Part shown: positions 998 through 15,036 of the stretch, in pieces | How the letters are laid out: each line of letters starts with the position of its first letter | Position numbering within the stretch: the stretch's first letter is position 1 | NCBI GenBank assembly: GCA_964360605.1 | Contig: CAYHXN010000001.1 | Location: 15,494-79,387 of the forward strand | Length of the DNA stretch: 63,894 bases | Origin: an uncultured Candidatus Saccharibacteria bacterium | GTDB lineage: Bacteria > Patescibacteriota > Minisyncoccia > UBA6257 > WO2-44-18 | Direction: 5' to 3' | Program-made: the position numbers and the translations under genes | Notes under the pieces: model-generated | What the model saw: the letters and a program-made list of their open reading frames with translations, nothing else | Told to the model about the DNA's origin: nothing | Database searches by the model: none

Positions 998-1435
998 TCA
1001 GAATAAGCGAATCGCTACTTTGTTTTGCATGTTGTCGCTTACGGAATCCATAAGGAGAAAAATTACTCTGTTATCAGTATCTGCGTGCTCTTGAGCATGT
1101 CGTTTTATTTCTTGGAGAAGACCTTCTCCGTGAGCATTGTTACCCCACCCACAATCGCAGTATGCCTGCCAAAAAATACTCGGTTTATTAGCCTTCCAAG
1201 TTCCTATTCTATTAAGCGTCAAGATCGACTTTCTGCCGATAAGCTTCTTAATATCTGTCGTTCTAGTTTCTATTCGCAATTCTGGTCTAATCTTATCCCT
1301 ATTGACGTGTAGCTTAATATGATCGTCCAAGTTAGTTAAAAAACGGCGCTGATCAACACTAACCCAACCACAAATGTCGCAAACAACTCCAATAAAACTG
1401 TCCCTTACTACTATGCGCATAGTACGTAATTGCAT
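998..1435 (-). CDS. Hypothetical small protein with two Cys/His motif units (putative zinc binding)
   Basis: 145-aa ORF with two similar units, CDICGW...(x17)...HIKLH and CDCGW...(x15)...HAQEH. I recognise no family. It lies between two divergently oriented GT-B-like paralogs. Confidence 0.5.
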   Translation of the reverse strand: MQLRTMRIVVRDSFIGVVCDICGWVSVDQRRFLTNLDDHIKLHVNRDKIRPELRIETRTTDIKKLIGRKSILTLNRIGTWKANKPSIFWQAYCDCGWGNNAHGEGLLQEIKRHAQEHADTDNRVIFLLMDSVSDNMQNKVAIRLF

Positions 1436-1530: not shown

Positions 1531-2637
1531 ATGAGACTACTAATTGCCGTTGACGCGCCCGGACCGGCGGAATTTATACGACCTGTTATTGGTTTGTTAA
1601 AAAGCAACCACCGCTACAGCGGGGCAAGCAAACGACATGAAATAAAAATAGTAACGGTTAAAGATTCGCCGACTAAAATTTTGGCGAAGTTCAGGCCGAC
1701 AAGATGCGATTCCGAAAAAGAGGCGGAAAAAATCTATAAAAAATTCCGGCCGGATGCGCTAATAATCGCTATGAGTTCTCTTGTGCTCGGACCACACGTA
1801 AATTTAAAATTTTCCGAATTGGCAAATAAGGGTAAAAAAACTGTTATTGGTTTTCAAGATTTCTGGGCTAATCATCGCTGGCCAACCAATAGAAAAATTT
1901 TATCGGTTTCCAAAGCAATTTTAGTTCCGGACGATCTAGCAGAAAATTTAATTCTGCAGGACGGATATAAAGGCAAGGTTCTCATTACCGGCAGTCCGGC
2001 CTTTGATAAGTTCCGAGAAATTTATGTTCCTAAAGAAAGAAAGCGACTAAGAAAAAAGTTGGGAATTCCGGAAGATTTTTTTGTTATTCTTCATGCCGGC
2101 ACCGGAACGCCTCAAAGCTGGAAAGAAGATGAAACGACTTTCAAATTTATCGCTAACACTATTAAAGAGCTCCAAAAAGAAGCTCATCGCATCGCTTTTA
2201 TATCCCGACCTCATCCCAGAGACGAAAATCCGGAACGATACAAAAAACTTGCTCCCGATTTAAAAATGATTGAAACAAAATCTATTCCTATCACAGAAGA
2301 ACTGGTTCCGGTCTCTGATGTCGTCATTGGAATGTATTCAACGAATCTGGTTCATGCCGCCTATCTTAGAATTCCCGCAATCAGCATTCTTTTACCAAAC
2401 GGCGGAATGCGGCGGCTTAAAAAGATTCATTTGGCAGATTTTCCTCCCAATGCCGCCGGAGCAACGGTGGGAATTTATAAGGCCTCCGTCCCCGCTCTTA
2501 AAAAAGAGTTGGAATTGATAATGATTGATCCGATACATAACGCCGTGATTAAAAAAGCCCAAGAGCGGTTTTTCCCAATCCTTAAAGAAACGGCCGCCAA
2601 AAAAGTTTTGGGGTCAATTCTTTCTTTGATTAATTAA
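1531..2637 (+). CDS. GT-B-fold-like hypothetical protein (glycosyl/phosphoglycosyl transferase-like)
   Basis: 368-aa ORF with an N-terminal Rossmann-like start (MRLLIAVDAPGP), VLITGSPAFDKF, RPHPRDE and a VVIGMYSTNLVHAAYLRIPAI segment typical of the C-terminal half of GT-B enzymes. Paralogous to the partial ORF 1..845. Confidence 0.55.
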   Translation: MRLLIAVDAPGPAEFIRPVIGLLKSNHRYSGASKRHEIKIVTVKDSPTKILAKFRPTRCDSEKEAEKIYKKFRPDALIIAMSSLVLGPHVNLKFSELANKGKKTVIGFQDFWANHRWPTNRKILSVSKAILVPDDLAENLILQDGYKGKVLITGSPAFDKFREIYVPKERKRLRKKLGIPEDFFVILHAGTGTPQSWKEDETTFKFIANTIKELQKEAHRIAFISRPHPRDENPERYKKLAPDLKMIETKSIPITEELVPVSDVVIGMYSTNLVHAAYLRIPAISILLPNGGMRRLKKIHLADFPPNAAGATVGIYKASVPALKKELELIMIDPIHNAVIKKAQERFFPILKETAAKKVLGSILSLIN

Positions 2638-2674
2638 GCGCTATTTTTATTTTTTCAAACTTATTTTCAAACCC

Positions 2675-2708
2675 GTCATTCTAACATTCTATAGAATGTT
2701 AGAATGAC
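2675..2708. promoter_or_regulatory. 34-nt perfect palindrome; candidate operator or RNA hairpin
   Basis: GTCATTCTAACATTCTA|TAGAATGTTAGAATGAC. No U-tract on either strand. The 24-nt core TCTAACATTCTATAGAATGTTAGA is shared with 3012..3051. It sits between the convergent stops of 1531..2637 and the ArsR-like gene. Confidence 0.5.
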
Positions 2709-2724
2709 ATTGAGCTAACTAAAA

Positions 2725-2994
2725 TCAAAGCTTGCTGATTAAATTTAAAAACTTAGCACCCAGCGGAGAAAGAATATGTATTACTGACCGAGAACGATAG
2801 TTCTTTTCAATCAAACCGGAGCGATGCAGTGTCGACGCATGCTGAGCGATTGTTTTAAAATGCGCTTCTAATCCATCGGAGATTGCCGATAGCGATAACC
2901 CCGGCTCTTGCTTCAATAAAAATAAGATTTTTAGTCGCCAATGATTGGCCCCGCCTTTAATCATCTTTTCCAAAGCTCGGAATTTATCTGTCAT
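2725..2994 (-). CDS. ArsR/SmtB-family winged-helix transcriptional regulator
   Basis: MTDKFRALEKMIKGGANHWRLKILFLLKQEPGLSLSAISDGLEAHFKTIAQHASTLHRSGLIEKNYRSRSV matches the ArsR pattern (ANxxRLxIL ... HL/TLxxxGLI). The start was moved to the ATG at 2994 because the track's N-terminal extension runs into the upstream palindrome. Confidence 0.8.
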   Translation of the reverse strand: MTDKFRALEKMIKGGANHWRLKILFLLKQEPGLSLSAISDGLEAHFKTIAQHASTLHRSGLIEKNYRSRSVIHILSPLGAKFLNLISKL

Positions 2995-3011
2995 ATTATT
3001 ACAACTTAAGA

Positions 3012-3051
3012 TACCACACTCTAACATTCTATAGAATGTTAGAGTGTGGTA
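3012..3051. promoter_or_regulatory. 40-nt perfect palindrome; candidate operator upstream of the ArsR-like gene
   Basis: TACCACACTCTAACATTCTA|TAGAATGTTAGAGTGTGGTA. It lies 18-57 nt upstream of the regulator ATG and 28 nt downstream of the neuB1 stop. There is no U-tract. Confidence 0.5.
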
Positions 3052-3078
3052 AAAGTAAAATTGAATTAGAATTGGAAC

Positions 3079-4200
3079 TTAAACTAGACGGTTAAGTGTG
3101 ATGGGGTCGTATTTTTTTAGTGCCTGCGCGGTTTTCTTTCCGATTACCTCTTCGTATTTTTCCGATGGCAATCCACCCGCGTATTGTTGCGGCCGCATAG
3201 CATAGACCATCTCCGAAGTTAAAGTTGCACCGGCCGGAATATCTTGCCCCGCCATTAAAGATTTTCTAAAAAGCGGGCGGAAGACAGCCTCACCTTCTTG
3301 TAAAACTTTGGCTTTGCTCCCCGATCCTTTTTTAGCAAAATCACTCTCCAAAACTTTTTGCTTTTCTTCAGCACTTTCAAGAACTTTATTAACCCCATTA
3401 ACTAAATCACTTAATTCCTGCGGCGTCATAGAAACTTTATGGTCAGAACCCCATAAAGTCCGCGACATGGAAAAATGCTTTTCTAAAATCGTCGCGCCCA
3501 TCGCTACCGCAACTAAATCCGGCTCTATGCCAATAGAGTGGTCGGAGAAACCGATTGGCATATCAAATTTTTCTTTGTAAAAATCAATTGTTTTAAGATG
3601 AAGCTCTTCCGGCGGGCAGGGATATTTAGAGACACAGTGAAGAAGCGCCACTCTTGGATTTTTCGCTCTTAAAAAATTAATCGCCTTCTCAACCTCCTCT
3701 AAAGTGCTCATTCCGGAAGAAATAATAATCGGTTTTCCGCTATTGCGCATGTAATCTAACATCACAAAATCCAAAATATCACCGGAGCCGATTTTCCAAA
3801 GATCAACGCCAACCTCGTCTAAAATTTTTGCCGCGCCGTGCGACATCGGCGTAGAAAAGAAAACAATTCCCTTCTTTTCGCAATGGGCTTTAAGCGGCTT
3901 CCAAAATTCGTTGATTGGAGTCGCTTTATTATTGCGCGTAACCCAACGGTATCGGTCGCTTCCTTTAAAATGCGGCGAAACAACATTAATATTCAGCTGT
4001 TCATCATCAACATTATGAGTTTGAAACTTAATCGCGTCCGCGCCGGCTTTGGCCGCTTCATCCACTAATTGCATAGCGTTTTTCAGATATTCTTCTACCG
4101 GCCGATCTTCTTCGGTTTGAATAAAATTCTTACCAGCTTCAGCAATTATAAAAACACCTTTTTGTATTTTTTCCCAAATTTTTTCTTGTACGTTTTGCAT
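3079..4200 (-). CDS. NeuB-family nonulosonic acid (sialic-acid-type) synthase, divergent copy, with SAF-like C-terminal domain
   Basis: IIAEAGKNF...AKAGADAIKFQTH, HCVSKYPCPPEELHLKTI, GFSDHSIGIEPDLVAVAMGATILEKHF and a C-terminal SAF-like region (LMAGQDIPAGATLTSEMV). It departs from the canonical AEAGVNHNGD motif seen in the second copy. Confidence 0.8.
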   Translation of the reverse strand: MQNVQEKIWEKIQKGVFIIAEAGKNFIQTEEDRPVEEYLKNAMQLVDEAAKAGADAIKFQTHNVDDEQLNINVVSPHFKGSDRYRWVTRNNKATPINEFWKPLKAHCEKKGIVFFSTPMSHGAAKILDEVGVDLWKIGSGDILDFVMLDYMRNSGKPIIISSGMSTLEEVEKAINFLRAKNPRVALLHCVSKYPCPPEELHLKTIDFYKEKFDMPIGFSDHSIGIEPDLVAVAMGATILEKHFSMSRTLWGSDHKVSMTPQELSDLVNGVNKVLESAEEKQKVLESDFAKKGSGSKAKVLQEGEAVFRPLFRKSLMAGQDIPAGATLTSEMVYAMRPQQYAGGLPSEKYEEVIGKKTAQALKKYDPITLNRLV

Positions 4201-14066: not shown

Positions 14067-15036
14067 GTTCTTTGAAATCGTGTTCCAACATGATCTTTAT
14101 TAAACTTTTAAACTTTACTTTCGGTTCCCAGCCCAACTTGTTTTTCGCCTTAGAATAATCGCCGCGCAATTCCGGCGTTTCTGATGGCCGGTGATAACGT
14201 GGATCAATTTCCACGCATTGCTTCCAATCCATTCCGGCCAACTTAAAAGATTCTTCCACAAATTCTCTAACGGTATGGGATTCTCCGGTTGCCACAACAT
14301 AGTCATCCGGTTCCGGCTGTTGGAGCATCAACCACATCGCTTCCACATATTCCGGCGCGTAACCCCAATCCCGAATGGCATCTAAGTTTCCCAAATACAA
14401 TTTTTTATCTAACCCAGCCTTTATCCGGGCAACACCGTTAGTAATCTTTTTGGAAACGAAGCTTTCTCCGCGCCGCGGGGACTCATGATTAAACAAAATC
14501 CCGTTCACGATAAACAGGCCGTAGGCCTCCCGATAATTTTTAGCAATCCAATAAGAAAATGCCTTAGCGCAAGCGTAAGGACTACGCGGGTGAAAAGGCG
14601 TATTTTCATTCTGCGGACTTTGTTTTGCCAAACCAAACATTTCCGAAGAAGAAGCTTGATAAAATTTGGTTTTAAGACCACTTTCACGAATTGCCTCCAA
14701 TAAACGCAAAGTTCCCAACGCCGTAATGTCGGTGGTGTATTCCGGAATGTCAAAACTCACCCGTACATGACTTTGAGCGCCAAGATTATAAATTTCATCC
14801 GGCTGGATTTTTTGCAATAAACGGGCCAAAGAACTCCCGTCGGCCAAATCTCCGTAATGCAAATGTAAACGGCTATCCGAATCATGGAGCCGATGCGGAA
14901 TATGACTAATACGCTTGGTATTAAAAGAACTGGAGCGGCGCATTATACCGTGAACTTCATAACCCTTAGAAATAAGGAATTCCGCTAAATAGGAACCATC
15001 TTGTCCGGTAACTCCCGTAACAAAAGCTTTTTTCAT
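14050..15036 (-). CDS. gmd: GDP-mannose 4,6-dehydratase
   Basis: [43 protein letters not shown]..., [22 protein letters not shown] and [15 protein letters not shown] are highly characteristic. Confidence 0.92.

Follow-up and report, generated by a model that had tools for sequence, protein, structure and literature searches.

Twin perfect palindromes around a small ArsR-fold regulator gene as probable operators of an autoregulated protein in Patescibacteria

Two perfect palindromes with a common core stand on either side of a gene for a small regulator in an uncultured member of the Patescibacteria, and the question raised by this locus is what such a pair is for. Patescibacteria (the candidate phyla radiation) account for a large share of bacterial diversity, are mostly uncultured and encode very few regulators. 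The sequence-only reading of this locus offered two answers, namely that the palindromes are operators through which an ArsR-type protein controls its own gene, or that they are RNA hairpins which insulate this gene from a neighbouring neuB transcript. We have weighed these and other explanations using the 63.9-kb window (the whole stretch of DNA that was analysed), the assembly to which it belongs (G000; 641 kb in 38 contigs, 42% G+C) and relatives that are all Patescibacteria MAGs. The features on which the argument turns are as follows.

1531-2637, plus strand: GT-B-like gene, convergent with the regulator gene and ending at 2637
2675..2708, no strand assigned: downstream palindrome (O-down), GTCATTCTAACATTCTATAGAATGTTAGAATGAC, 34 nt, perfect (17+17)
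2725..2994, minus strand: regulator gene, 89 aa, predicted ArsR/SmtB-fold winged helix, ATG at 2994, stop codon at 2725-2727
3012..3051, no strand assigned: upstream palindrome (O-up), TACCACACTCTAACATTCTATAGAATGTTAGAGTGTGGTA, 40 nt, perfect (20+20)
3018..3053, minus strand: promoter-like elements over O-up, a -35-like TTTACC (3053-3048), 16 nt, and a -10 TAGAAT (3031-3026)
3026-3018, minus strand: extended -10-like TGTTAGAGT, within the O-up palindrome

The lengths, coordinates and sequences of the palindromes proved to be exactly as first described, including the 24-nt core TCTAACATTCTATAGAATGTTAGA common to both (2680-2703 and 3020-3043), and over 30 nt the two are 93% identical. The claim that this core is unique to the two sites also stands, even with up to three mismatches allowed across the window; 100 shuffles gave 0 matches and the chance expectation is zero. 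O-up lies 18-57 nt upstream of the ATG of this minus-strand gene and 28 nt from the end of neuB, whose stop is at 3079, and O-down starts 16-17 nt past the regulator's stop codon, in the gap between two convergent genes, a placement which likewise agrees with the initial description. Each arm of O-up holds two heptads (AGAATGT and AGAGTGT), and the core can be written as TTCTAACATTCT-AT-AGAATGTTAGAA, a literal 12-2-12 inverted repeat over the regulator gene's own promoter-like elements. The centres of O-up and O-down are 340 bp apart. Elsewhere in the window, between two GT-B-like genes, there is a 145-aa Cys/His-rich ORF (998-1435, minus strand) with no Pfam match at E <= 0.01.

What kind of protein does the gene between the palindromes encode? 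Its Pfam HTH_5 match is marginal (22.3 bits against a cut-off of 22). When a profile of 49 orthologs was compared with the PDB the best match was HlyU (4k2e, E = 1.5e-7), followed by ArsR, CadC and PagR. The AF2 model (pLDDT 94.3) has the topology a1-a2-a3-aR-b1-b2-a5, with helices at residues 2-15, 18-29, 35-42, 46-58 and 77-87 and strands at 62-67 and 70-75. Its top Foldseek match is CzrA (TM 0.90, rmsd 1.5 A over 89 columns), SmtB, PagR, HlyU, NolR and CadC are also found, and TM values to non-metal regulators of the HlyU/NolR/PagR type are 0.77-0.90. On this predicted structure the protein belongs to the ArsR/SmtB fold family. Homologs are numerous, with 654 cluster representatives at E <= 1e-3 in a full HMMER scan, as compared with only 4 proteins recovered by a word-based search.

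The sequence-only reading had taken the protein to be of a metal-sensor family, and this holds at the level of the fold only. There is no cysteine in the 89-aa sequence, His, Asp and Glu are missing from helix a5 (PLGAKFLNLISKL), neither of the known ArsR/SmtB metal-site types (alpha-3/alpha-3N Cys and alpha-5) was found, no efflux or metallothionein gene adjoins the regulator, and the best sequence matches are to the non-metal HlyU. Nothing, then, marks the protein as a metal sensor, metal sensing is not supported, and it is without evident sensor residues.

The arrangement seen in the window recurs in relatives. Across the Patescibacteria 80 loci were fetched, from which 64 orthologous genes were parsed, and 47 of the 64 have sites on both sides. 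Around these 64 genes there are 55 upstream sites, with the mode of their centres at -42 from the ATG, and 54 downstream sites, with a modal centre at +7 past the end of the stop codon. The usual downstream site of an ortholog overlies the stop codon, its left arm encoding ...KTF-stop (AAA ACA TTC TAA), and the locus in this window is a variant that has a TATA centre and its downstream site shifted 16 nt past the stop. The site consensus, acAACATTC[C/T]AACATTCT-GC-AGAATGTT[G/A]GAATGTTgt, has a pair of heptads in each arm. Throughout the class little or no variation is seen in the arms as far as position 17, which fits sequence-specific recognition and not a mere stem. The distance between sites has its mode at 319-321 bp in the orthologs and shows no clear helical phase (resultant length 0.31-0.39 at periods of 10-11 bp). 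The exact 24-nt core is found in 39 stretches from other Patescibacteria species (about 0.002 expected by chance, by our own arithmetic), mostly in short gaps between a stop codon and the next start, just upstream of gene starts. Sequence comparison thus indicates that the site-gene-site layout is conserved across the class, and full-text searching of the literature found no description of this layout, or of any regulator/operator pair, in Patescibacteria.

The genes beside the cassette are of many kinds. The 118 neighbours of the 64 loci fall into about 100 Pfam families, no conserved partner gene is found among them, and the commonest family, DUF559/MTES_1575 endonuclease-like, accounts for 5 neighbours. 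A further suggestion of the sequence-only reading, that the regulator controls the sugar cluster in which it lies, is not supported by this variety of neighbours, by the lack of further sites in the window, or by the sequence fetched around neuB of the same-genus G004 and of G001 and G005, in which there is neither regulator nor site. In these three genomes of the family the gene order around neuB differs from that in the window. Individual loci have features of their own. In G019 (L034, G019:C3:153000-158400) an ExoX-like exonuclease gene stands on one side of the cassette and, one gene removed on the other side, there is a PIF1-like helicase gene after which comes a further site, and a PIF1-like helicase adjoins the cassette in two more loci; in L015 (G020:C7) a tandem (ACGTATA)n run lies between the regulator's stop codon and the downstream palindrome.

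If the palindromes are sites for the protein, the two might be expected to vary together. The 21 genomes of the family contain 20 homologs, nearly all preceded by a palindrome that lies 5-36 nt from the ATG, and the type of site tracks the branch of the protein, each type adjoining its own subfamily's gene. Specifically, there are; 1) ACATTCT..AGAATGT sites at orthologs of the window protein; 2) GTGTTCT, ACGTTCT, ATGTTCT or ATATTCT sites in a paralog subfamily (G000:C12 and its relatives); 3) CAAACT..AGTTTG sites in another branch of homologs; and, 4) TTCGnnCGAA sites in distant ArsR-like branches. A simple recognition-helix code was considered and rejected, as G005 and G019 share the helix TISEHTRRL and yet have ATGTTCT and ACATTCT sites respectively; this difference must therefore be read elsewhere, perhaps by the wing.

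Protein and sites also occur together. In 151 genomes drawn evenly from the class, where a reversed control pattern gave no matches, 25 have the protein and sites, 7 the protein only, 11 sites only and 108 neither (odds ratio 35, Fisher p = 4.6e-14), and within the family the corresponding counts are 10, 0, 4 and 7 (p = 0.004). Perfect sites for which no cognate gene was detected are thus found in 11 genomes of the class, and in G011 and G016 within the family, and such sites speak against simple operators. Some of these orphans may reflect assembly loss, since the cassette is often on tiny contigs or contig ends, as it is in several other MAGs, and palindromes may break assemblies and hide copies.

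The position of the upstream site is itself informative. A promoter consensus scan of the window gave 3 matches against 2.0 expected, which is weak by itself. In the orthologs, the right arm of the upstream site provides a -35-like TTGGAA hexamer 17 nt before a TGnTAnnnT -10, and this -10 sits 6-9 nt before the ATG, a position that suggests leaderless or near-leaderless transcripts. Because the upstream site lies over promoter-like elements, a protein bound there would occlude the promoter, which is the classical geometry of an autorepressor. O-down also carries a candidate outward-facing promoter (TGTTAGAAT).

We propose that the palindrome pair are cognate double-stranded DNA sites, that is operators, of a non-metal ArsR-fold protein that controls its own gene and has a small regulon, and from the sequence evidence we would place the probability of this at roughly 0.7. 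The operator answer of the sequence-only reading is in this way strengthened by what we observe: an architecture that is conserved, a site type that co-varies with the protein subfamily, co-occurrence of the two, a fitting fold, and overlap with promoter-like elements. From these we infer binding, probably as a dimer or pair of dimers, with two AGAATGT-type heptads per arm around a 2-bp centre extending the 12-2-12 core to about 17-2-17. At the upstream site, over the putative promoter, the protein would most likely repress its own synthesis.

The regulon may extend beyond the locus. A search of the whole genome for the core found a third perfect copy on another contig (G000:C14:6011-6048, 38 nt, TAATCATTCTAACATTCTATAGAATGTTAGAATGATTA), making three in the assembly. 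Its neighbours are scpB on one side and a Peptidase_S11 (D-Ala-D-Ala carboxypeptidase) gene on the other, and its outer TAGAAT, 7 nt before the likely ATG of the latter, looks from its sequence like a promoter of the leaderless type. The same protein would also act at this copy.

The role of the downstream site can be given with low certainty only, with a loop, a roadblock or boundary, and an outward promoter all being possible. The candidate that it serves as promoter or operator of the next gene was rejected: 44 loci have a co-directional next gene and 19 a convergent one, about the proportions usual across the genome, and the convergent loci retain the site. The unrelated neighbours, together with this retention in convergent cases, indicate that the downstream site belongs to the regulator cassette, and in the window O-down faces a convergent gene with no obvious target, a point against the operator reading. 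As a fixed part of the cassette it most likely would strengthen repression by bridging over 340 bp to the upstream site, or, where the gene ends, bound protein may form a roadblock or boundary. We favour cooperative binding or a roadblock.

How does this arrangement compare with known systems? The non-metal regulators of the ArsR/SmtB family, such as HlyU (Vibrio), NolR (Sinorhizobium), PagR (Bacillus anthracis) and BigR/SqrR, bind inverted repeats as dimers of a small winged-helix protein, and several control their own genes. The window protein has the same fold and size; however, the thiol/persulfide switch of HlyU, BigR and SqrR cannot apply to a protein without cysteines, the site here is perfect and of far greater length (34-40 bp, with a pair of heptads in each arm), and there is a conserved second site at the 3' end of the gene as well as copies inside coding regions. 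With SmtB, CzrA and CadC it shares a 12-2-12 inverted repeat over its own predicted promoter, and CzrA is its best structural match, but it is without their alpha-3N and alpha-5 metal ligands. Operators of lambda CI (OR and OL either side of cI-rexAB), lac (O1-O2) and gal (OE-OI) cooperate by DNA looping, and here too a repressor gene would have one operator at its promoter and another downstream, although the second site is only about 320-340 bp away, at or over the regulator's own stop codon, and no helical phasing is seen. The kind of system is a known one; the variant is an unusual one, of which the searched literature gave no description, with a site at the stop codon, copies in frame within genes, and concerted evolution of symmetric sites.

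These unusual features allow a different explanation, in which the palindromes are a self-propagating or actively homogenised element, functionally like REP/REPIN with its RAYT (TnpA-REP), and regulation is secondary. Gene conversion, repair on a hairpin template or a nuclease would place copies at new positions, some of them in frame within essential genes, and the winged-helix protein would serve to recognise or maintain the element. We consider this explanation unlikely, but it accounts for several observations which a plain operator does not, and these are set out below. As with REP/RAYT, a gene is bracketed by cognate palindromes, there are dispersed copies, matching is type by type and evolution is concerted. 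Relatives have 1-16 copies per genome, some of them inside genes, so that dispersal of the core as a repeat over unrelated loci, which the sequence-only reading had held would count against operators, is borne out in part. The unrelated neighbours of the cassette point the same way. On the other hand, REP/RAYT systems have tens to hundreds of extragenic copies, compared with 3 in this 641-kb assembly, and copies here are in frame in genes and in many cases at promoters. Nor is there a nuclease or HUH/Y1 motif in the 89-aa protein, in which only winged-helix families and folds were found.

The symmetry of the sites extends past the conserved core. Each of the three copies has outer arms of its own (GT.., TAAT.. 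and TACCA..) and is nonetheless perfectly symmetric. Class-wide, among sites that are perfect to position 19, complementary pairs at positions 20-23 have a frequency of 0.5-0.7 against a background of 0.27. A dimer that reads half-sites does not need such symmetry in the outer arms. In downstream sites the T at position 10 of the left arm is fixed by the stop codon, and the right arm matches it with A in 38 of 42, whereas position 10 is mostly C/G in upstream sites. This too would favour such an element.

The copies within genes are best described with the paralog in view. This regulator (G000:C12:2770-3093, 89 aa, 41% identity to the window protein) is preceded, at a distance of 14 nt, by a perfect palindrome of its own of 38-42 nt (AATCTATTCTAGTGTTCTTAAGAACACTAGAATAGATT), and the last part of its gene, just before thrC, contains a degenerate copy. 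The order shikimate kinase-site-regulator-site-thrC is kept in G004 and G005, with G020 keeping the regulator-thrC part, and the upstream palindrome also encodes the shikimate kinase C-terminus (..SILVFLRTLE-stop). Palindromes of the paralog type lie in frame within murD (G000:C24:4371-4414, ..KIYSSVLKNTRID..) and within an O-antigen-ligase-like (Wzy_C) gene (G000:C5:23150-23187, ..AIYSNVLENIRID..), positions which carry sites in other genera too, each of its own genome's type. Counted over genomes, in-frame copies at orthologous positions are found in the Wzy_C gene in 6, murD in 3, ychF in 3 and an ArgS-like gene in 2, and they encode (Q/S)HS(N/H)(I/V)L(K/E/Q)NV(R/G)M. In the present genome ychF is cut at a contig start (G000:C23:1-202), downstream of the position where relatives carry the in-frame site, and it is because the gene is cut by the contig end that no ychF copy is seen here.

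The in-frame copies appear to have replaced native sequence. The ychF copy aligns to T. thermophilus YchF (PDB 2dby) with no insertion or added length, and the mnmA region is equally long with and without a site, so that for these two genes insertion of the kind known as Rickettsia RPE-like or MITE was rejected as the origin. No target-site duplication was seen and no empty-site allele was found. Replacement of this kind agrees with an element that is written in place, but the lack of duplications and empty sites does not, and the occurrence of intragenic copies at orthologous positions across genera indicates old vertical inheritance and not recent jumps.

Copies within a genome also change in concert, each being closer to the other copies of its genome than to its orthologous counterpart in a sister genome. 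In G016 the sites of the ligase-like gene and of ychF are identical over 36 nt, while the orthologous sites of G017, from the same genus, differ from these at about 5-6 positions each, and the sites of G000 and G004 follow each genome's own type. The central hexamer is likewise specific to the genome (CTATAG here, CTCGAG in G016, CTGCAG in most of the class). Neither change in concert nor a place in frame inside conserved genes would be expected of independent operators, and both would fit active homogenisation; the concerted change could, however, stem from co-evolution with the specificity of the protein or from genome-wide selection on the central 6-bp restriction-type palindrome, and the unexplained features as a whole could also reflect quasi-palindrome correction by template switching.

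In its fullest form this alternative would make protein and palindromes a genome-wide, self-maintaining cis-element system, a nuclease-free ArsR-fold partnership like REPIN/RAYT. Through gene conversion or hairpin-templated repair, possibly set off by binding of the protein to extruded cruciform DNA, perfect sites of 34-50 bp would serve as templates for one another and stay uniform in each genome; murD, ychF, O-antigen-ligase-like and ArgS-like genes would have received theirs in frame, and each site would double as a compact promoter/operator. We regard this also as doubtful.

Palindromes are not confined to this regulator. The genome has about a dozen other perfect palindromes of at least 30 nt, in several families. 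Two genes for PaaX_M/Cas2-like proteins of 189 and 183 aa (G000:C26:1640-2680 and G000:C4:20906-21522) are flanked or followed by palindromes of their own, which are perfect, 30-46 nt long and contain TATAAT-like hexamers; they are a second regulator family with a self-bracketing layout in the same genome. A perfect palindrome of 32 nt at G000:C16:9585-9616 runs up to the ATG of an HTH_17 gene, next to which comes a Fic/Doc gene; the two genes are likely a toxin-antitoxin-type pair and the palindrome their operator. At G000:C3:14114-14133 and 14236-14259 there are two parS-like palindromes (TGTTTCACGTGAAACA), separated by 122 bp.

The second answer of the sequence-only reading was that the palindromes act as RNA, either as terminators without a U-tract or as processing or stability elements, insulating the regulator from the neuB and glycosyltransferase transcripts. 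The predicted stems are indeed very stable (-31 and -24 kcal/mol; z = -9.0 and -6.9), one palindrome lies just after neuB and the other between convergent genes, and copies in other species are often a few nt past a stop codon. Intrinsic (Rho-independent) terminators differ in having a G+C-rich stem and a T-run: both stems here are A+T-rich, and a scan of 2500-3200 confirmed that no T-run follows either palindrome and found no terminator-like site with a T-run on either strand. The class-wide conservation of the arm sequence, its change with protein subfamily and the co-occurrence of sites with the protein also argue against a hairpin, as do the sites inside essential genes, where termination would be harmful. 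Moreover, among the arm mismatches of 118 distinct sites, read on the sense strand, there are 31 of G.U type, 26 of A.C type and 40 transversions; an RNA stem would tolerate G.U, and the lack of a G.U bias argues that symmetry is kept at the level of DNA. We therefore disfavour RNA hairpins and judge them very improbable. Chance or an assembly artefact can practically be dismissed: chimeric assembly can yield perfect palindromes, and in this bin contigs do end close to such sites, but both palindromes lie inside a 79-kb contig, shuffles gave 0 matches and the same layout is found in dozens of independent assemblies from different studies.

We thus return to twin operators of an autoregulated ArsR-fold protein as the preferred reading. 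It would provide, for the Patescibacteria, a regulator/site pair that can be tested with an 89-aa protein and a 34-40-bp site conserved across the class, and the candidate regulon touches cell-wall genes, namely those for the D-Ala-D-Ala carboxypeptidase, murD and the O-antigen-ligase-like protein. If active copying were to prove true, then the site at the stop codon, the in-frame copies and the concerted symmetry would bear on how reduced genomes gain and maintain their binding sites.
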